This document shows positions 1 to 6,641 of a DNA stretch of 6,641 nucleotides, one piece after another (positions within the stretch are counted from its first letter, which is position 1; the number at the start of each line of letters is the position of its first letter). The notes under the pieces were generated by a model. The model ran no database searches and had not been told where the DNA came from. It saw only the letters and a list, made by a program, of their open reading frames with translations. Source of the DNA: a virus (taxonomy: Duplodnaviria > Heunggongvirae > Uroviricota > Caudoviricetes); the IMG/VR virus record IMGVR_UViG_2681813261_000025, positions 1 to 6,641 of that record; one strand, given 5' to 3'. Made by a program: the position numbers and the translations under genes.

Positions 1-83
1 GCTCTACACTTTGAGCCTGTTAAATTGATTAAAAACTTATGTGTAAAATAGAACGCATTAGTCAGTAGCAAAGAGATGCAATA

Positions 84-876
84 ATGGACGATTTATCGGT
101 ATACGCGAGATCATTGGATAAGGCTAAATACTATGTTTACTGTCTCTATGATANNNNNNNNNNNNNNNNNNNNNGATACAGAAGACAAGATGAAAAGACC
201 GTTTTACATAGGAAAAGGCAAATCGACTCGTTGTCTCGATCACATCAAGTATCCCGATGACTCTCCCAAATCCATGCGGATCAAAGAACTTTTGGCTAAT
301 AAAAAATTAGGCATAGATATACTTCGTCATGGTATGGATGAAACCACAGCCAAACTTGTTGAGGCGACATGCATCGACCTTATGGGGGTCGGAGAGCTTA
401 CGAATAAGGTACGAGGAAGTGGTTCCATGATGGGCAGAATATCACTGGACGCCTACCATCACTTAGTGCTGCAAGAGGAAACTGAAATTGCTCCTGAGCA
501 CGCCGGTCTTGCCTTCCTGCTAAACAGCACCTACAAGTCAGGAATGTCCGCTCTGGCATTATATGAAGCTACGCGTGGCGTATGGGCAAAGGTTCCAAGA
601 GACGAGAATCTCAAATATGCCTACGCTACATATGGTGGGCTGATAATGGAAGTTTATCAGATTGAATGCTGGGTCAAAGCCGGTTCTCAGCAGTACTTTA
701 CAAGGGATATAGCTCTTGGCCCCGACACAAAACGTTATGAATTTGTTGGCAGAATAGCCGATGAGCATATTAGAAAACTGTATGTAGGCAAATTAATCAA
801 GAAGCCACCAAGCTACGGTAGCCCTTTTGTGAAGGTTGGGGTGGTTAGGACTGAACATAGTGTTAGCGCGGCATAA
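84..876 (+). CDS. GIY-YIG nuclease-domain protein with an unassigned ~180-aa C-terminal domain; the ORF is broken by the N-run and the frame differs on either side of it
   Basis: The ORF track calls 133..876. Upstream, the ATG at 84 opens a different frame reading MDDLSVYARSLDKAKYYVYCLYD up to the N-run, where YVYCLY looks like the GIY half-motif. After the gap the track frame reads RPFYIGKGKSTRCLDH, matching the YIG-x-x-K...R...H half of a GIY-YIG core. The two halves only join if the true gap length is not 21 nt, so the 5' boundary and exact length are uncertain. A hairpin terminator follows the stop. Confidence 0.5.
154..174. other. Run of 21 N (assembly gap or masked bases) inside the GIY-YIG ORF
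   Basis: Literal n characters at 154..174. The reading frame that carries the protein motifs changes across the run, so the run does not represent the true number of bases. Confidence 0.95.
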
Positions 877-892
877 AGCTGACACTGTAGTT

Positions 893-930
893 ATGCATTG
901 GCGCAATGTACGCGCCAATGCATGATTTTT
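893..930 (+). terminator. Rho-independent terminator between the convergent GIY-YIG gene and the par operon
   Basis: Perfect 12-bp stem ATGCATTGGCGC (893..904) / GCGCCAATGCAT (912..923) with a 7-nt loop, followed by GATTTTT (924..930). It lies 17 nt after the stop at 876 and overlaps the parB stop codon. Confidence 0.6.
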
Positions 931-1288
931 AACCTTTCTTCATCAACTCTCGTTTGATTTCATCGGTACGCATCGTGACATCGGCAGCGGTGATCGCCTC
1001 ATTCAATTTCACGATGTCCTCGATTTCCTGCGGTGACTTCTCTGCCAGATGGAAAATGGCTGCTCGAATCACGTCAGAACGAGTGAACTTCTCGAAGCGA
1101 GGGATGAACTTCATCATCTCCAGCAGTTCGAAGTATTCGTCCTCCAGTGACATTGTGCGGCTTTTAATTTTCTCTTTGCCACGAGTCGGGCGTCCCTGTG
1201 GTCTGACTGGTTGGCGCAAAGGAGTTGTGTTCTTAGCCGGTGCATCAGGCTCTTTGCGCTTTGCTAGGTCACCCATTTTCATGGACAT
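929..1288 (-). CDS. Small partition protein (putative centromere-binding ParB/ParG-like partner of the ParA ATPase)
   Basis: 119-aa ORF directly downstream of parA, with its ATG overlapping the parA stop (TAATG at 1286..1290 on the - strand), implying translational coupling. It has a basic Arg/Lys/Pro-rich N-terminal tail (RQPVRPQGRPTRGKEK) followed by a short helical region, the architecture expected of small type Ib centromere-binding proteins. Assignment is by context and composition, not a specific motif. Confidence 0.55.
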   Translation of the reverse strand: MSMKMGDLAKRKEPDAPAKNTTPLRQPVRPQGRPTRGKEKIKSRTMSLEDEYFELLEMMKFIPRFEKFTRSDVIRAAIFHLAEKSPQEIEDIVKLNEAITAADVTMRTDEIKRELMKKG

Positions 1289-1956
1289 TATTCTTCTTCC
1301 TCCAGACTCAACAGATAATCTACAAATTCTTCAAACTCGGCTTCCGCCTTTTTGTCGCGCTCGCTACCGGTCATTTCAAAGATAGAACGACCAGACTCTT
1401 CCGCATCATCATAGACGTTGCGGTTATACAGATTGACTGGCGCAGACTCGATTCCAAACGTCTCAACAATCTCTTTAGCCGCCAGAATGCGAGACACTTG
1501 TGATGGCAAAGCCGGGCACTGGTTCATGACCGCGCGGACCTTCACTTTATCGTTTACATTGCGAACATTGTCGATAATAGGATCGATGTCACGTAAAGAT
1601 TTCAAATCACGACGCTTAGGACGCAGCGGGATAATGATAACGTCAGCCATCAGCATCGCTTGTCGCTGAATTTCGGAGTCGAAGCCACCAGCATCTACCA
1701 CTACAAACTCAGCTCTACCCTGAAGCGATTTTAGGTGCTTAATGATGTCATCCTGAACGTATGCAAAAGGAATCAGCTCAAGGTCTTCGTTCTGTCGACG
1801 GTCTTCACACCAGCTCGTTGTCGTGCGCTGAATATCTATATCGGTAATATAAACCTTCTTCTTCTTTTTGACTTTCAGGCAAACGGCAATTTGCTGGGCA
1901 ACGGTGGATTTGCCAGGCCCGCCCTTTGTGCCGCCAACCACAAAGATCTTGGTCAT
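1288..1956 (-). CDS. parA: ParA/ParF-family partition ATPase (small type Ib ParA)
   Basis: 222-aa ORF with an N-terminal deviant Walker A motif, VVGGTKGGPGKST (KGGxGK[ST]), and a hydrophobic VVVDAGG Walker B-like stretch. Its size fits the small type Ib ParA proteins. A Shine-Dalgarno-like AAGGGA lies about 9 nt upstream of the ATG on the - strand. Confidence 0.85.
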   Translation of the reverse strand: MTKIFVVGGTKGGPGKSTVAQQIAVCLKVKKKKKVYITDIDIQRTTTSWCEDRRQNEDLELIPFAYVQDDIIKHLKSLQGRAEFVVVDAGGFDSEIQRQAMLMADVIIIPLRPKRRDLKSLRDIDPIIDNVRNVNDKVKVRAVMNQCPALPSQVSRILAAKEIVETFGIESAPVNLYNRNVYDDAEESGRSIFEMTGSERDKKAEAEFEEFVDYLLSLEEEE

Positions 1957-2274
1957 TGGAGAGTTCCCTTTGCGTATATAATTATCGTCTGAAACAACTT
2001 GTTTTCTTATATGTGATATAGCCTAAATGCCTACGGCTGCGGTGTAAAGGTTAAATGGTAGGTTGTGATTAACAATTGGCAATCATAGCTTGTATTTGTC
2101 TGTTGAAAAAAGTAACAATGACCTCTATATTACAAGTACGGTGATATGCCGTACACAATTTGATAATGCACACGTAATGGGCTATAGCCTTTTAAAGTAA
2201 TTTTTGAGTCGAAAACTCAGTTTGAACAGAGGAGATTGATGGCCTTCCTACATCACGGCCATCAGGAGGAATAC
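1957..2274. promoter_or_regulatory. Divergent control region between parA and the toxin-antitoxin operon; candidate par centromere/operator and TA operator
   Basis: 318-bp AT-rich intergenic region flanked by divergent start codons. It contains a perfect 10-bp palindrome GGCTATAGCC (2180..2189), an inverted repeat GTACGG-N7-CCGTAC (2136..2154), a small palindrome AAACTCAGTTT (2211..2221), and the recurring words GTGATAT (2013, 2141) and TATAGCC (2018, 2183). A weak sigma70-like candidate is TTGATA (2160..2165), 17-bp spacer, TATAGC (2183..2188), overlapping the palindrome. No transcription start can be determined from sequence. Confidence 0.35.
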
Positions 2275-2544
2275 ATGTCAGCACTAAAAAAGCAGCGCAT
2301 CGATTTGAGATTAACCGATGACGATAAAAGCATCATCGAGGAAGCTGCCGCAATGTCTAACCAGAGCATTACTCAGTTTATGGTTAGCAGTGCATCTGAA
2401 CGTGCCGTGAAAGTTATAGAGCAACACCGTAGACTAGTTCTGAATGAAGAATCCTGGAATCTGGTTATGGACGCTATAAGCAATCCTCCGGCACCGAACG
2501 ACAAGCTGAAACGAGCTGCTGATCGTCTGAAAAGCATGGAGTAG
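2275..2544 (+). CDS. ataR: DUF1778-type antitoxin partnering a GNAT toxin (AtaR/TacA/KacA family)
   Basis: The 89-aa product from the ATG at 2275 (MSALKKQRIDLRLTDDDK...NPPAPNDKLKRAADRL) has the length and N-terminal basic strand typical of this family, including a conserved-looking NPPAPN segment. A strong AGGAGG (2264..2269) sits 5 nt upstream. The ORF track's longer start at 2236/2239 has a poorer spacing. It lies immediately upstream of the GNAT toxin gene. The family call is firm; the specific symbol is by recalled similarity. Confidence 0.8.
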   Translation: MSALKKQRIDLRLTDDDKSIIEEAAAMSNQSITQFMVSSASERAVKVIEQHRRLVLNEESWNLVMDAISNPPAPNDKLKRAADRLKSME

Positions 2545-2551
2545 TTTACTC

Positions 2552-3073
2552 GTGAGCAATACAACGATAGAGATTTTCTCTGGAGAGAAAGATTATGATC
2601 TAAACGGTTTTGATTGCGGCGAAGAGTCACTAAACGCCTTTTTAGCCAACCACTTAAAAAGGCAGCATGAGGGAAAAATTCTTCGTGCTTATGTGCTTTG
2701 CACTCAAGAAGAAAGGCCAAAAGTGTTAGGATATTACACTTTGTCAGGTAGTTGTTTTGAAAAGGAGTCCTTACCTTCAAGAAGCAAACAAAAGAAGGTT
2801 CCTTATCGGAATGTTCCAAGTGTTACTTTGGGTAGGCTGGCTTTGGACAAGTCCCTTCAAGGTCAAGGATTTGGCTCAATGCTTGTAACACATGCAATGC
2901 GCGTTGTGTACAATGCATCTCTTGCTGTAGGCATTCATGGACTTTTCGTTGAGGCGTTAAATGACAAAGCCAAGGCGTTTTATAAAAGTTTAGGCTTTAT
3001 CCAGCTGGTTGGTAACAACGAGCGTTCTTTGTTCTATCCTACAAAATCTATCGAAAAATTGTTCGAAGAATAA
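2552..3073 (+). CDS. ataT: GNAT-family N-acetyltransferase toxin (AtaT/TacT/ItaT family, aminoacyl-tRNA acetylating)
   Basis: 173-aa ORF starting at GTG 2552, 7 nt after the antitoxin stop. The N-terminal DYDLNGFDCGEESLNAFL and the acetyl-CoA-binding-like RLALDKSLQGQGFGSML (Q/R-x-x-G-x-G/A pattern) are characteristic of GNAT toxins paired with DUF1778 antitoxins. The sequence closely resembles what I recall of E. coli AtaT; this was not verified by search. Confidence 0.85.
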   Translation: MSNTTIEIFSGEKDYDLNGFDCGEESLNAFLANHLKRQHEGKILRAYVLCTQEERPKVLGYYTLSGSCFEKESLPSRSKQKKVPYRNVPSVTLGRLALDKSLQGQGFGSMLVTHAMRVVYNASLAVGIHGLFVEALNDKAKAFYKSLGFIQLVGNNERSLFYPTKSIEKLFEE

Positions 3074-3076
3074 TGT

Positions 3077-3098
3077 GTTCCCCTCATTTGAGGGGAAC
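3077..3098. terminator. Hairpin between the convergent toxin gene and the lysis-like operon (possible bidirectional terminator)
   Basis: 9-bp stem GTTCCCCTC (3077..3085) / GAGGGGAAC (3090..3098) with a 4-nt loop, sitting between the stop at 3073 (+) and the stop at 3106 (-). There is no long T-tract on either side, so terminator strength is uncertain. Confidence 0.4.
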
Positions 3099-3105
3099 TT
3101 CGACA

Positions 3106-3321
3106 TCACCAACCACAAACCCTCTCTCCCATCGTATTGTGAAAAAGGATTTGGCGTTCGGTTTCTTCAGTCATTACATCATTATTGCTGATATAGATAG
3201 GCTCAGCCCCATCGCAGAACAACACGCTGGCTGTTTGTGGTTTAATGACGCACCCACTTATCATACAACTCACGATGAACGGCAGAAGCATCTTTCTGAC
3301 GTATTTTACTGCTCGTCTCAT
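3106..3321 (-). CDS. Putative outer-membrane lipoprotein, o-spanin-like (Rz1-like)
   Basis: 71-aa ORF with a basic n-region (MRRAVKYVRK), a hydrophobic h-region and a lipobox-like ISGC (signal peptidase II type). Its 5' end overlaps, out of frame, the 3' end of the upstream TM protein gene (3242..3321), as in overlapped spanin pairs. It is the last gene of the lysis-like cassette. Confidence 0.45.
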   Translation of the reverse strand: MRRAVKYVRKMLLPFIVSCMISGCVIKPQTASVLFCDGAEPIYISNNDVMTEETERQILFHNTMGERVCGW

Positions 3322-3493
3322 TCACCACTTTCACTGTGTTTTGAAGTCGTTTTCTGTCTTCCTGTTTTGCCTTCTCTTCCATTGCTCGTCGCGCCGCATT
3401 CCCGCCCATCGTGTAAGCGCCGACAAGAACGAAAAGAACGGCAGCCAGCGTAATCAAAGCAACTTTTAGCTTTGTCATCAGGCTGCCTAGCAT
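3242..3493 (-). CDS. Putative inner-membrane i-spanin-like protein (short; N-terminal TMD plus charged helical region)
   Basis: 83-aa ORF with an N-terminal transmembrane segment (LKVALITLAAVLFVLVGAYTM) followed by a highly charged probably helical region (RRAMEEKAKQEDRKRLQ). Its ATG lies 1 nt after the stop of the endolysin-like gene and its 3' end overlaps the lipoprotein ORF. It is shorter than classical Rz proteins, hence the low confidence. Confidence 0.4.
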   Translation of the reverse strand: MLGSLMTKLKVALITLAAVLFVLVGAYTMGGNAARRAMEEKAKQEDRKRLQNTVKVVNETSSKIRQKDASAVHRELYDKWVRH

Positions 3494-3494
3494 A

Positions 3495-4187
3495 TTAGAC
3501 CATCCCTTTCTGGTGTTTTCTTACCTGCGACCAGGCAATGAATCCTGCCACAACAATAGTGGCAATACCGAAGATGATGCGTACTGTATCCCCGCTAGAG
3601 ATATGACCTTGTGCTTTATCCATAGCAGCGGAAACCTGCGGCATAACATCGGCCAGCTGCGCCAGACCAATACCTGCTGTAACAGTTGCGCCTGCGGTTT
3701 CTTTAGTTACAGGAACAGCCTTCACGGTTTTCACCGGCTTAACAACGCCAGCTCGACGCAGACCTTCCTCAATAACTTCTGCCGCATACCAGGTGTTCAG
3801 CGTTTTTAGCGGGCCTCGGCCATTCTCGTGGCGAATGATTGCCTCAACCAAAGGTCGAAGGATGTCGTAATCATGCAGATCGATGATCATGTCTGCGGTT
3901 ACACCAACGGCTTTAGACACCTCATTAATGTAGGCGTCAGTATTGTTTTCATTCGGCGGTGCCCAGCGTTCAATAACTTCACGAATGGTATCGATACTTG
4001 TGCCGTCTTTTGCGCGACGTTTATCGTGGTAGGTAATTAGAGTCACCGCCAGCGCACGAATCCCCCAAACAGGGTCTTTAAACGTGCAAAAGCGCGGTTC
4101 GTCTGGATTCGCAACCAGACCTTGCCACGGTGATCCTTTATCAAGATTACCGGGGTTATTATTACGAATGCCTCTCGGAGTCTTCAT
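3495..4187 (-). CDS. Putative endolysin-like lysis protein of unrecognised catalytic family, with a C-terminal transmembrane anchor
   Basis: The ATG at 4187 is preceded by AGGAG about 7 nt upstream; the ORF track's GTG start at 4214 adds 9 residues. The product begins MKTPRGIRNNNPGNLDKG, has acidic conserved-looking stretches, and ends in a single hydrophobic segment (IIFGIATIVVAGFIAW). Its position between a small membrane protein and a spanin-like pair suggests the muralytic role, but I cannot match a catalytic motif (lysozyme, transglycosylase, amidase, M15, CHAP). Confidence 0.4.
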   Translation of the reverse strand: MKTPRGIRNNNPGNLDKGSPWQGLVANPDEPRFCTFKDPVWGIRALAVTLITYHDKRRAKDGTSIDTIREVIERWAPPNENNTDAYINEVSKAVGVTADMIIDLHDYDILRPLVEAIIRHENGRGPLKTLNTWYAAEVIEEGLRRAGVVKPVKTVKAVPVTKETAGATVTAGIGLAQLADVMPQVSAAMDKAQGHISSGDTVRIIFGIATIVVAGFIAWSQVRKHQKGMV

Positions 4188-4200
4188 CCTTGATCTCCTG

Positions 4201-4524
4201 TTATTGCAGTCCACTTTTTACGCCATACGCGGCTAACCCCAAAAGCAGTGCGGTAATAATGAACGACGTTATTTTAGAAACAATGCCGCCAAAGAACCCA
4301 CTTGAGATGGAATCTAACCGGTTAAGGAGTTTGTCCAGATTGGAGTGTTGAATACTATGTTGCGCCGGGGTCATATCACCAAAGTAGGTTTTCAGCTGAT
4401 CATTGACCTCCTGGCCAATTTCTTCACGTAGCTCTTTACCTAATTTGCCAACAACCTCCCGAGCAACGATCGCGGCAATACGCTCAACTTGCTCTGTTGT
4501 AACGCCCGCCATCTCGTTCGACAT
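4201..4524 (-). CDS. Small tail-anchored membrane protein, holin-like by position (first gene of the lysis-like cassette)
   Basis: The second in-frame ATG at 4524 has an excellent RBS (GGAGGA, 5-nt spacer), so the first ATG at 4536 is unlikely to be used. The product has a ~75-aa hydrophilic N-terminal part and one C-terminal TMD (FFGGIVSKITSFIITALLLGLAAYGV). This topology is atypical for canonical holins, so the functional call is tentative. Confidence 0.4.
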   Translation of the reverse strand: MSNEMAGVTTEQVERIAAIVAREVVGKLGKELREEIGQEVNDQLKTYFGDMTPAQHSIQHSNLDKLLNRLDSISSGFFGGIVSKITSFIITALLLGLAAYGVKSGLQ

Positions 4525-4583
4525 GTTTTCCTCCATGAAAAGTCAAATCGGGATGGCGGATTTATATCATATTTTAACCATTT

Positions 4584-4620
4584 GTAGTAGGTATATACTT
4601 ACCTACTATATATCTTGCAA
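4584..4620 (-). promoter_or_regulatory. Candidate promoter with an embedded perfect palindromic operator upstream of the lysis-like cassette
   Basis: The 121-bp AT-rich intergenic region 4537..4657 contains a perfect inverted repeat TAGTAGGTA (4585..4593), 6-bp spacer TATACT, TACCTACTA (4600..4608). Read on the - strand there is a sigma70-like TTGCAA (-35), a 17-bp spacer and TATATA (-10), with the -10 lying inside the palindrome. A second small dyad GCAGAT-ATA-ATCTGC (4640..4654) sits just after the tfa stop. Confidence 0.4.
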
Positions 4621-4657
4621 ACTAATCGTTGTTAATAATGCAGATATAATCTGCCCC

Positions 4658-5239
4658 TTACTCTGCTGGTATTGTTGGCCAGTCAATATCCGGTGCCGTT
4701 GATGTGTCAATGCGGTTCAATAAAACTCTATACTTCTTCCATGCAGTCAGCAACGATGCTTCTTCCTCCGTTGCAATCTCCAAATCTACAGCATCCTGAA
4801 GTGGCGCAATGTGCTCGCTGGCTACCTGCATCAGACTTTTTTTTGTTTCTTCCGCTTCCCGTACCTGAAACAATTTTTCTGTTTCCGTATCCTTCACCCA
4901 GGCTGTGCCGTCCCACTTCTGATATTCCCCATCCGGTGATAACCAGGTGACATTTTCCGGTAATGGCCCAAGTTCAGAAATAAACAACGCGTCCCCTGAT
5001 TCCACGTCATAGACCGTTTTACCCCTGTGGTCTTCAACGAGACTCCATGATTTATTTTCGCTGTTGAATACGGCCACGAAGCCAGCAGGTACATCCGGTG
5101 GCGCTATATCCGTAGAATAAGCTGGCAGCCCTGTATGAGGTGGAATATATGCATCACCTTCACCAATAAATTCATTGGTTCCGGCCAACAGATTATAAAT
5201 TTTTATGGTCCGTGGTTGTTCACTCATTGTGAAGTCCAT
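4658..5239 (-). CDS. tfa: Tail fiber assembly protein (lambda Tfa-like chaperone)
   Basis: The product ([60 protein letters not shown]...[21 protein letters not shown]) is near-identical over its length to what I recall of phage lambda Tfa and the E. coli prophage TfaE/TfaR proteins. The ATG at 5239 is preceded by AGAGGTGA; the ORF track's start at 5245 is a GTG two codons upstream. Confidence 0.9.
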
Positions 5240-5247
5240 GTTCACCT

Positions 5248-6150
5248 CTACTTAATATCAAAGACAGTATGTTGTTTATTGAGTGTATGGGTGTGAGCAC
5301 CAACAGTGATGCCCCTTCCGTGATTATATGCGCCAGTGGCGATATTGCCTCCGGTATTTTCCGGATTAATCCGGTGTATATGCGAACCAGGGCGAAACCG
5401 GTTATTAGCCTGATGTTGTATCAGTACATCATCAGCCTGATGTTCAGGGTTAATACAGATCTGCCCTGAACGTGAGCAATACGTCCGATAATCGCCGCAT
5501 CCAATATATTTAGTATCCGCATAACGGCAAACAGAATTACCCGGACAGTATGCATATGTGCCAAATACTGCCGACTGGCGGGAGTGTGCGTATTCCCAGT
5601 TAATTGCTTCTGTTTTTTTATTAAAGTTATCCCACGCCTGCTTCATCTGCCGGGCAACGCTTTCAAACGGAACCTGACCACATCCGGCCCCCATTGCAGG
5701 GAATACCACCGTCTTTATTTTCCTGTCTGTCGTTGCGTTTTTATTGTGCTGAAAGATGGCAAGTAAAGCGGCCCAGGTTGCGTTATATACAGAGTCTGTT
5801 CCGTCAATTGTCAGCGGAACACGCATTGTTGGCGCATGTACCAGCCAGGGGTGATGATTATGCCCCGTTTCAATAACAAATGCAGAACCTACAGGCTGCT
5901 CGCCTAGATATTCACGAAGAATATGATTCTGAACGCGGGACTGTAACTGAGTACCGAAGAATGCGGTAATGGCGGCATCAACGCCGCCATCCATCAGGCC
6001 GAAACTATTTGCCGCACTTACCATGCAGTCAAATTCTCTGATTGTTTCAAATGGCTTTCCGACAATATTCACATTATCTGCGTTTGCAAATACCCGCTTA
6101 AATGCTTCAGCCATTTCTGTTACTGGTGCAGAAAGAATGAGCGTAATCAT
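5248..6150 (-). CDS. Macro-domain (ADP-ribose binding/hydrolase-like) protein fused to a Cys/His-rich tail-fibre-repeat-like C-terminal module
   Basis: 300-aa ORF whose ATG overlaps the tail-fibre stop (ATGA at 6147..6150), with GAGG 7 nt upstream. The N-terminal ~185 aa carry macro-domain motifs: [21 protein letters not shown] (compare the canonical xxVNAAN...GGGGVDGAI), [20 protein letters not shown], and [14 protein letters not shown] (compare AFPxISTGxYGxP). The C-terminal ~110 aa have six Cys ([10 protein letters not shown]...[16 protein letters not shown]) and GSHIHRI / GAHTHTL repeats of the same GxHxH type as the adjacent tail fibre. The ORF ends 8 nt before tfa. Confidence 0.8.
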
Positions 6151-6641
6151 GCAAGCCTCACAATATAGTTAAATGCGATGTTTTTGACGGTGTTTTCCGC
6201 GTTACCAGCAGCGTTAACGGTGATGGTGTGTCCATGTGAACCAATCGCAACGGAGTGCGTATGAGCACCAATACCGACAGTATGTGCGTGAGCACCTGCG
6301 CTTGCGGCACTACCGGATAACGAGTGGGTATGTGCTCCATCTGATGATGTCTTCCCTGATATACGGGCCATACCTTGGCCACCTTGCCGTGGTACAACTG
6401 GTTTGTTTGTGACTGAAACCTGGGTATAACCGTTAGGAAAGAGATCACCATCATTAGTATTCGCATATGGTCCAGAACTATGGTGTTGGTGCCCACCTGC
6501 ACTATTTGCAGTCCCGCTAATACTATGGGTATGCGCCCCGGTGTTATTCGTGGATTTGGTTCCGTAATCAAACGACGATGTGGTTTTCGTCCCCAAATCC
6601 GTACTGGATGCGCTGGCGCTGTGGGTGTGCGATTTAATGCC
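6147..6641 (-). CDS. stf: Side tail fibre protein, C-terminal portion (5' end lies beyond the window)
   Basis: The reading frame is open to the window edge ([15 protein letters not shown] precedes the track's TTG start at 6596), so the gene is partial. The product has Gly/Ser/Thr-rich sequence with multiple GAHTHS / GAHAHT / GSHGHT repeats typical of T4 gp37 / lambda Stf-type fibres, and ends [15 protein letters not shown]. It is in the same orientation as tfa and upstream of it. Confidence 0.85.

Follow-up and report, generated by a model that had tools for sequence, protein, structure and literature searches.

Macro domains encoded by phages have only recently been shown to act as counter-defence enzymes, in that the AdfM macrodomains of PhiKZ (gp104), PhiPA3 (gp108), and T4 (Tk.4) reverse the DNA ADP-ribosylation made by DarT2 (PMC13309987; bioRxiv 10.1101/2025.11.20.689424). 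This is the only experimentally defined role of a phage macrodomain found in our literature search, while phage Macro domains have been predicted to degrade ADP-ribose (ADPr)-derived signals, toxins, and ADPr-1''-phosphate (PMC7824862). Here, we describe a 300-amino-acid (a.a) macro-domain protein encoded between the side tail fiber gene (stf) and the tail fiber assembly gene (tfa) in a 6,641-nt stretch of DNA from a virus of the Caudoviricetes (IMG/VR record IMGVR_UViG_2681813261_000025, positions 1 to 6,641; hereafter, the window). The original observation of this gene is confirmed, and its macro assignment is correct. As to function, we tentatively read the product as a late-expressed, cytoplasmic ADP-ribose-processing enzyme with a counter-defence or detoxifying role, carried in a mobile host-range cassette, and place this reading somewhat short of an even chance. 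AdfM parallels the proposed role of the window protein in being a phage-encoded, standalone macro domain used in counter-defence; however, AdfM proteins belong to a DarG2-like, Lys-dependent subfamily, do not lie in a tail operon, and have no Cys/His tail. The two types coexist in PhiPA3, where the relative of the window protein is gene 271, distinct from the AdfM gp108.

The closest described relatives of the window protein are found in Chuche (CDS0053, 83% identity), Gifsy-1 (STM2588.1n, a member of the same family), and SEN5 (gp19; 68–69% identity for the latter two). All share the stf-(ATGA)-macro-tfa order, a four-cysteine (Cys4) module, and the first GAHxH motif, but differ in the length and sequence of the C-terminal tail (the window allele is 300 a.a with a degenerate middle motif) and in the host element, which is an SSU5-like phage-plasmid for the window and a lambdoid or P2-like prophage for the others. 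The same gene order was seen in Gifsy-1, the P2-like SEN4 and SEN5, Chuche, Erwinia and Izhakiella prophages, and 80 IMG/VR contigs; where a contig includes the flanks, a fiber ending in NYIVRLA precedes the macro gene and Tfa follows it. A protein search returned 1704 homologues, mostly from Salmonella, and 128 of the 5426 complete E. coli genomes carry the gene (109 chromosomal and 22 plasmid copies).

The gene has also been annotated many times. The Gifsy-1 entry reads 'contains pfam01661, Macro', and the Prokaryotic Genome Annotation Pipeline (PGAP), which uses the name 'macro domain-containing protein', annotates the gene in the 128 E. coli genomes as well as in hundreds of Salmonella sequence clusters; PHROG 2613 is labelled 'unknown function'. 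The stf-macro-tfa arrangement is thus common, already annotated, and not new to databases. The original prediction, made from the sequence of the window, held that no tail-fiber-linked macro domain had been described, which does not stand for annotation, given the order is annotated in Gifsy-1, SEN4/SEN5, and Chuche, but does stand for function, as no functional study was found. Our literature search likewise returned no paper discussing the macro gene family of stf-macro-tfa loci.

The Macro Gene and Its Cassette

A 300-a.a open reading frame (ORF) between stf and tfa, with its ATG overlapping the fiber stop codon, had been predicted and was confirmed at 5248–6150 on the minus strand. What the original prediction left out is the orientation: all late genes of the window lie on the minus strand, with transcription running from the stf 3' end (6641–6147) through the macro ORF (6150–5248) and tfa (5239–4658) into a lysis block of a holin-like gene, an endolysin, and Rz/Rz1. 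The motifs it quoted were all located in the sequence, at residues 44–61 and 148–161 (macro motifs), 255–259 (GSHIH), and 284–288 (GAHTH). The features of the locus are as follows.

4658–5239, minus strand: tfa, tail fiber assembly gene, 193 a.a from the ATG at 5239 (Caudo_TAP, 1.7e-44; phrog_105, 2.4e-98)
5240–5250, minus strand: macro stop codon TAG and 8-nt spacer with a Shine-Dalgarno-like GAGGTG for tfa (minus-strand sequence ATTAAGTAGAGGTGAACATGGAC)
5240–6145, no strand assigned: 906-bp cassette, the macro gene plus the 8-nt ribosome-binding-site spacer, missing in macro-less sister phage-plasmids and lambda
5248–6150, minus strand: macro-domain protein gene, 300 a.a plus TAG stop (ORF list; Pfam Macro, 5.2e-19; member of PHROG 2613)
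5251–5415, minus strand: variable His-rich tail, residues 246–300 (GSHIH at 5374–5388, degenerate GAYNH at 5320–5334, GAHTH at 5287–5301)
5416–5565, minus strand: Cys-rich module, residues 196–245, family-specific (C202, C208, C225, and C232 flanking a predicted beta-hairpin, then H237-Q238)
5566–6150, minus strand: macro domain proper, residues 1–195, including an N-terminal beta-alpha-beta extension (AlphaFold2, Foldseek, cellular homologues)
5668–5709, minus strand: loop 2, glycine-rich diphosphate-binding loop, residues 148–161 (aligned to YmdB FPAISTGVYGYP)
5965–6021, minus strand: ligand/catalytic loop 1, residues 44–62 (N48 and D58 at the MacroD-type Asn/Asp positions)
6147–6150, minus strand: ATGA overlap of the stf stop TGA (6149–6147) with the macro start ATG (6150–6148), read from the sequence
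6147–6641, minus strand: stf 3' end, partial ORF of a lambda-type side tail fiber (phrog_295, 6.4e-70; Pfam Phage_fiber)

The phrog_2613 profile matches the protein at 1.2e-147 over residues 1–270. The 4-nt ATGA overlap is identical in 64 of 84 related loci, with GTGA in some of the others, and purifying selection is evident in both the macro domain and the Cys module (ratios of nonsynonymous to synonymous polymorphism, pN/pS, of 0.10 and 0.17, respectively).

Comparison with macro-less relatives bears out the proposed insertion between stf and tfa with translational coupling kept. Homology to a sister phage-plasmid (L004, NZ_CP122497) and to lambda (L006) stops at window position 5239 and restarts at 6146, and in both of these the two genes abut as GCATAATG, which delimits a precise 906-bp cassette. 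Within the cassette, promoter-like sites (2) were fewer than the 4.4 expected, no terminator was found flanking the macro gene, and base composition was not deviant (GC content 0.45–0.49, equal to the neighboring genes). Of the traits that mark a moron, the locus thus shows presence and absence between collinear genomes, but neither a promoter and terminator of its own nor a deviant composition. Given the lack of promoter and terminator signals above chance and a GC content equal to the flanks, the cassette is not a classical moron; it is built for translation with stf and tfa. The true tfa start is most likely the ATG at 5239 (MDFTMSEQ) rather than the GTG at 5245 in the ORF list, since lambda Tfa and the L004 Tfa start alike. 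In Gifsy-1 and SEN5, the macro stop codon overlaps tfa by 11 nt.

Fold, Ligand Site, and Origin of the Macro Domain

Profile and structure searches agree that the N-terminal half of the protein has a macro fold, as had been predicted. Pfam Macro (PF01661) matched at 68.8 bits (cut-off 22; E 5.2e-19), with residues 44–169 covering profile positions 1–118 of 118, and the AlphaFold2 model, computed from an 82-sequence alignment, had a predicted local distance difference test score (pLDDT) above 90 for residues 1–196. The top Foldseek match to this model was the yeast protein YMR087W (1NJR; E 6e-11, 198 columns, root-mean-square deviation 2.9 Å, N-terminal extension covered), followed by TTHA0132, OiMacroD, macroH2A, PARP9, DarG, YmdB, and MacroD2. 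A total of 203 PDB entries matched at E ≤ 1e-3, and the 50 listed among them were all macrodomains or designs on the TTHA0132 scaffold.

In a profile alignment (hhalign) with E. coli YmdB, N48 and D58 fall on N25 and D35, the catalytic Asn/Asp pair of MacroD-type enzymes. Like YmdB, human MacroD1/2, and OiMacroD, the window protein has the loop-1 Asn and Asp ten residues apart and a glycine-rich loop 2; it departs from YmdB in having Asp54 where the GGG triad has its first Gly, Thr62 for His39, and Gly158 for the loop-2 Tyr, each a difference from the MacroD-type pattern. Across 82 phage and cellular sequences, the invariant positions are N48, G51, M53, D54, G55, G56, D58, H105, P107, M109, R110, G154, and G158. 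We conclude that the N-terminal region is a genuine macro domain whose site looks intact. Its subfamily has YMR087W, an ADP-ribose-1''-monophosphatase, as the nearest characterized member, and the best fold match spans residues 1–196; however, the two share only 21% identity and YMR087W has no Cys/His tail. The window protein would bind, and probably hydrolyze, an ADP-ribose-type substrate.

Assignment to a narrower class was less clear-cut. No NCBIfam equivalog cut-off was reached (best 52.1 bits against 246, NF001666), with the O-acetyl-ADP-ribose deacetylase models well under theirs (33.8 against 200 and 21.2 against 271 bits). Pfam Macro_2 (PF14519) gave the window protein 23.3 bits, under the gathering score of 27; many of its relatives carry a precomputed match to this model. 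The PADLOC DarG model matched marginally (E 0.0033 over 39 residues, 138–176), and the DarG structure 5M3I ranked 21st in Foldseek. A DarG-like active site was first suspected from a comparison of HAPTMR with FPTK; the sequence and profile matches favor the MacroD/YMR087W side.

The altered site residues bear on a different possibility, in which the protein is a non-catalytic ADP-ribose reader or sponge that sequesters a host immune signal without turnover. Asp54, Thr62, and Gly158 fit such a role, as do the macroH2A-type binders among the nearest PDB sequence matches, and phages are known to use sponges against NAD-derived signals (bioRxiv 10.64898/2026.06.04.730250). On the other hand, Asn48 and Asp58 are invariant, the top structural neighbor is an enzyme (Appr-1''-pase, 1NJR), and sequestration would need a high copy number. 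We regard this non-catalytic reading as distinctly unlikely.

The macro domain derives from a large cellular family of standalone proteins of ~210 a.a. When one genome was scanned per species, standalone cellular proteins of ~200 a.a with 47–56% identity over residues 1–195 turned up in Chloroflexi, cyanobacteria, Acidobacteria, Planctomycetes, Bacteroidota, and others, and a search started from one of these homologues returned more than 3188 standalone proteins of ~210 a.a. No conserved neighbors were found in 73 loci of cellular homologues. Standalone members of the same subfamily are found in jumbo phages too (Noxifer gp281, PhiPA3 gp271, phiRSL1 ORF054) and in giant viruses, and in the Noxifer and phiRSL1 loci that we inspected, the macro gene sits among hypothetical, non-structural genes.

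Several of these proteins bear tail-related names in databases. Two cellular macro proteins from metagenome-assembled genomes of Bacteroidota and Chloroflexi (P0202 and P0206) are named 'phage tail protein' at NCBI, and such names seem to have been passed on transitively from the prophage genes of enterobacteria. The 'tail protein' name in Noxifer and phiRSL1 was likewise rejected as a tail link, since these genes are standalone and the name is transitive. In the PHROG family phrog_14717 ('tail protein', 228 positions), positions 3–58 match stf repeats and positions 101–226 match macro residues 45–170 (E 2e-63), which suggests that stf::macro ORFs, either fused by deletion or mis-called, underlie the family. 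Decayed or chimeric macro copies were also noted, including a frameshifted copy in an IMG/VR contig (L154, 3501–4400), truncated ORFs, and the proteins P0121–P0124 and P0019, the last being a ParM-like::macro chimera on a short contig. In SEN34 (L009, 3501–3683), a 61-residue remnant of the Cys module lies beside an acyltransferase gene.

The C-Terminal Cys/His-Rich Region and Possible Virion Attachment

Downstream of the macro domain, the protein has the Cys-rich C-terminus with GxHxH motifs that had been predicted. In the Cys module, C202, C225, and C232 are invariant and C208 is nearly so, with low AlphaFold2 confidence (pLDDT 45–55). The tail beyond it holds two to four G[AS]HxH motifs across the family, of which only the first is conserved at ≥90%, and one motif is lost in frequent alleles (GAYNH in the window, GTPTH in others). 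Tail length and sequence differ among relatives (proteins of 269–300 a.a), the pN/pS of the tail is 0.90 in the E. coli 300-a.a group, and its pLDDT is below 40; both AlphaFold2 monomer runs had low confidence in the C-terminal region. In three copies from Izhakiella australiensis (L014–L016), with macro ORFs of 300 a.a, a macro domain of ~70% identity, and the stf-macro-tfa order kept, the last 105 residues have an unrelated sequence but are again Cys/HxH-rich (GAHTHSI, GAHHHGVKK).

The original prediction called this C-terminus tail-fiber-tip-like, which is apt for the short HxH motif shared with the fiber but does not extend to homology. An exhaustive phmmer search of 1.84e9 representatives found the C-terminal module nowhere outside its own family and matched no fibers; its other matches were repeat-protein artefacts (InlB-repeat, Peptidase_S74, NOMO-like). 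An independent occurrence of the module elsewhere was also sought with a word-index search, which gave just truncated fragments of the same family. Profile-profile comparison (hhalign) of the tail with fiber C-termini yielded a single 11-column match at 66% probability, and no DNA similarity of the tail to stf was found with blastn-short (best E 2.3). Compared with the HxH needle of T4 gp37 and lambda Stf, the tail shares the G[AS]HxH motifs and one 11-residue unit that aligns; however, its motifs are not invariant, they start at residues 255, 273, and 284 (spacing of 18 and 11), whereas the fiber motifs are invariant with a 9-residue period, and no homology was detected.

It had further been suggested, as a duller alternative, that the inserted gene captured the original fiber tip. 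This is ruled out: the window Stf has a complete distal tip and a canonical C-terminus, with the same ending as lambda Stf and the fiber of the macro-less sister plasmid, and the tail shows homology to stf neither in DNA nor in profile comparison beyond the 11 columns noted above. We therefore consider the tail a family-specific, probably metal-binding module which shares a motif with the fiber and is neither a fiber tip nor derived from stf.

Attachment of the macro protein to the virion is a separate question. Here, the Cys/His tail would trimerize or dock on the distal fiber or on Tfa, with Tfa as chaperone and with metal-binding HxH strands of the kind seen in the Stf/gp37 needle, and the protein would serve at the fiber end as an adhesin or a surface-acting enzyme. 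Analogues are the T2-type gp38 adhesins and those Tfa proteins that are retained on fiber tips. The T2/S16-type gp38 and the bound Tfa/TAC systems likewise have a gene right after the fiber gene, co-expression with a chaperone, and a fast-evolving C-terminal part, although no sequence or profile similarity of the window macro protein to them was detected. Attachment would account for the invariant stf-tfa position with overlapping or near-overlapping codons in siphovirus and myovirus lineages, for the Cys and G[AS]HxH motifs in every family member (including the unrelated Izhakiella tail), and for the fast evolution of the tail end, which with its pN/pS of 0.90 and indels resembles receptor-binding tips. 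The 11-column profile match joins a tail unit to a fiber unit, and the failure of AlphaFold2 on the monomeric tail would be expected of an obligate oligomer or a metal site.

Set against this are the lack of detectable tail homology to any fiber at the protein or DNA level, an HxH spacing that departs from the fiber period, and the loss of distal motifs in frequent alleles where the fiber HxH motifs are invariant. The tails do not track the fiber tips either: one tail type is paired with four fiber tips, and a further two are each seen with both common Salmonella tips. No stf-macro or macro-tfa fusion was found in ~90 loci, and the odd cases that resembled Stf-macro Rosetta-stone fusions turned out to be GTG starts. 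Moreover, members of the macro subfamily found elsewhere are standalone, cytoplasmic, and non-structural, there is no known extracellular ADP-ribose-type substrate, and the 'phage tail protein' names, borne by Chloroflexi and Bacteroidota homologues, are transitive. In a co-variation analysis of the macro tail with the fiber tip and Tfa, all distances correlate through shared ancestry, and with tail types mixing among several tip types at cluster level, the analysis does not speak for or against a tip-specific interaction. Virion association, with the macro protein attached to fiber or Tfa, is not the reading we favor, and we rate it as rather unlikely; the receptor modification raised by the original prediction found no support.

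A Candidate Counter-Defence Role in the Host-Range Module

We return to the counter-defence reading introduced above, under which a standalone cellular macro enzyme of the YMR087W/Appr-1''-pase-like subfamily would have been captured by enterobacterial phages and later gained the family-specific Cys4 and His-rich C-terminal module. The gene, with neither promoter nor terminator, is inserted between the 3' end of stf and the 5' end of tfa, the two conserved segments at which the host-range module is most prone to recombine. Haggard-Ljungquist and colleagues are said to have described in 1992 that host-range modules recombine between unrelated phages through these conserved ends. The position between stf and tfa is then explicable without a physical link, because anything lodged between the recombining segments travels along, and the gene would so have moved with the host-range module among lambdoid, P2-like, and SSU5-like phages. 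As it lies between stf and tfa without a promoter of its own, the macro gene would be translated late in infection together with both.

The enzyme would act in the cytoplasm of the infected cell, at the stage when fiber and chaperone accumulate, by binding and probably hydrolyzing an ADP-ribose-type ester, phosphate, or conjugate. ADP-ribosyl marks would thereby be removed, or the ADP-ribose-derived products of NAD+-based host defences destroyed or sequestered. The Cys/His tail, on the same reading, would be a metal-binding targeting or oligomerization element and not the receptor-binding tip of the fiber.

A possible link between this chemistry and the neighboring genes comes from type II Thoeris, which uses a His-ADPR signal. 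The preprint cited above indicates that sensitivity to this system is set by the alleles of the side tail fiber and its chaperone, and that it senses complexes of the two, in Pseudomonas N4-like phages (bioRxiv 10.64898/2026.06.04.730250). By inference only, an ADP-ribose-handling enzyme between fiber and chaperone is therefore an attractive suppressor beside the trigger. The macro gene could then be a counter-measure encoded beside its own trigger, translated stoichiometrically with Stf and Tfa, possibly tethered to them by the Cys/His tail, and destroying or sequestering the ADP-ribose-derived signal or mark where and when it arises. We think this specific version unlikely. In a more radical version, the macro protein may be carried on the fiber into the next infection.

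Several points weigh against a counter-defence enzyme. Late expression is odd timing for counter-defence unless the defence triggers late. The protein does not appear DarG- or AdfM-like (PADLOC DarG, E 0.003 over 39 residues; T4-type Tk.4, a distant fold match). Loop 2 lacks the MacroD aromatic residue and the GGG triad starts with Asp, for which reason the protein might bind its ligand without hydrolyzing it. Finally, the strict gene position and the HxH tail are not required by this reading and fit a physical link to the fiber or Tfa equally well.

The gene may instead be a hitch-hiking passenger or lysogenic-conversion gene, which persists by lying between two recombination-prone segments and benefits the lysogen, or nobody, rather than lytic growth. 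The macro-less sisters are viable, with SSU5-like phages and lambda lacking the gene, its presence is limited to 128 of 5426 E. coli genomes, and decayed copies occur (the frameshifted L154, truncated ORFs, and the SEN34 remnant). In Gifsy-1, the region downstream of tfa is a known moron/virulence zone with pagK-like and gogB genes. Against a mere passenger stand the conserved translational coupling and the strong purifying selection to which the macro and Cys modules are subject; the gene has no promoter or terminator of its own for expression in a lysogen, and in Salmonella intact members of the family are very common. This explanation, too, we hold to be quite improbable.

The window belongs to an SSU5-like phage-plasmid. 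The left 4.6 kb shares 96–99% identity with the Escherichia phages CMS-2020a, Cyrano, and PhiR41_1 and 84% with the Salmonella phage SSU5, and the full window shares 90–92% identity with ~110-kb, IncFIB, non-mobilizable E. coli plasmids (top match pTB212, NZ_CP033252). The distal tip of Stf (6338–6508), which lies between the outgoing and returning HxH strands, is wholly different from that of two otherwise near-identical sisters (L004 and L005); this is the usual host-range mosaicism. The lysis block (3106–4536, minus strand) contains a small, holin-like membrane protein (phrog_5093, 4201–4536), an endolysin with a hydrophobic C-terminal segment (phrog_873, 3495–4214), and an Rz-like spanin (3242–3493) with an overlapping ORF (3106–3321), in which an internal start gives MLLPFIVSCMISGC, with a lipobox typical of Rz1.

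Further from the macro gene, the minus strand at 929–1956 encodes a ParA/MipZ-like partition ATPase (222 a.a) and an overlapping basic protein of 119 a.a with no Pfam match, which is probably the ParB-like or centromere-binding partner in this phage-plasmid. On the plus strand, a toxin-antitoxin pair of the TacA/TacT type occupies 2236–3073: the antitoxin is of the DUF1778/TacA1 kind (8.6e-26), and after it comes a GNAT acetyltransferase toxin whose counterpart in phage Cyrano is annotated as 'KacT acetyltransferase-type toxin'. The ORF at 133–876 (plus strand) has a GIY-YIG-like domain (Pfam LEM-3_GIY-YIG, 5e-7) and includes a run of 21 masked bases (N, 154–174), which appears as XXXXXXX in the ORF list.

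What is new here is a common, strongly conserved macro gene with a unique tail inside a mobile host-range cassette. The family is different from AdfM and far more widespread in enterobacteria, and it includes the Gifsy-1 gene of S. Typhimurium LT2. Should the protein prove to sit on the fiber, it would become the first virion-borne macro domain to be found. If its targets are ADP-ribose marks or signals, then immune evasion would travel in host-range modules together with receptor specificity.

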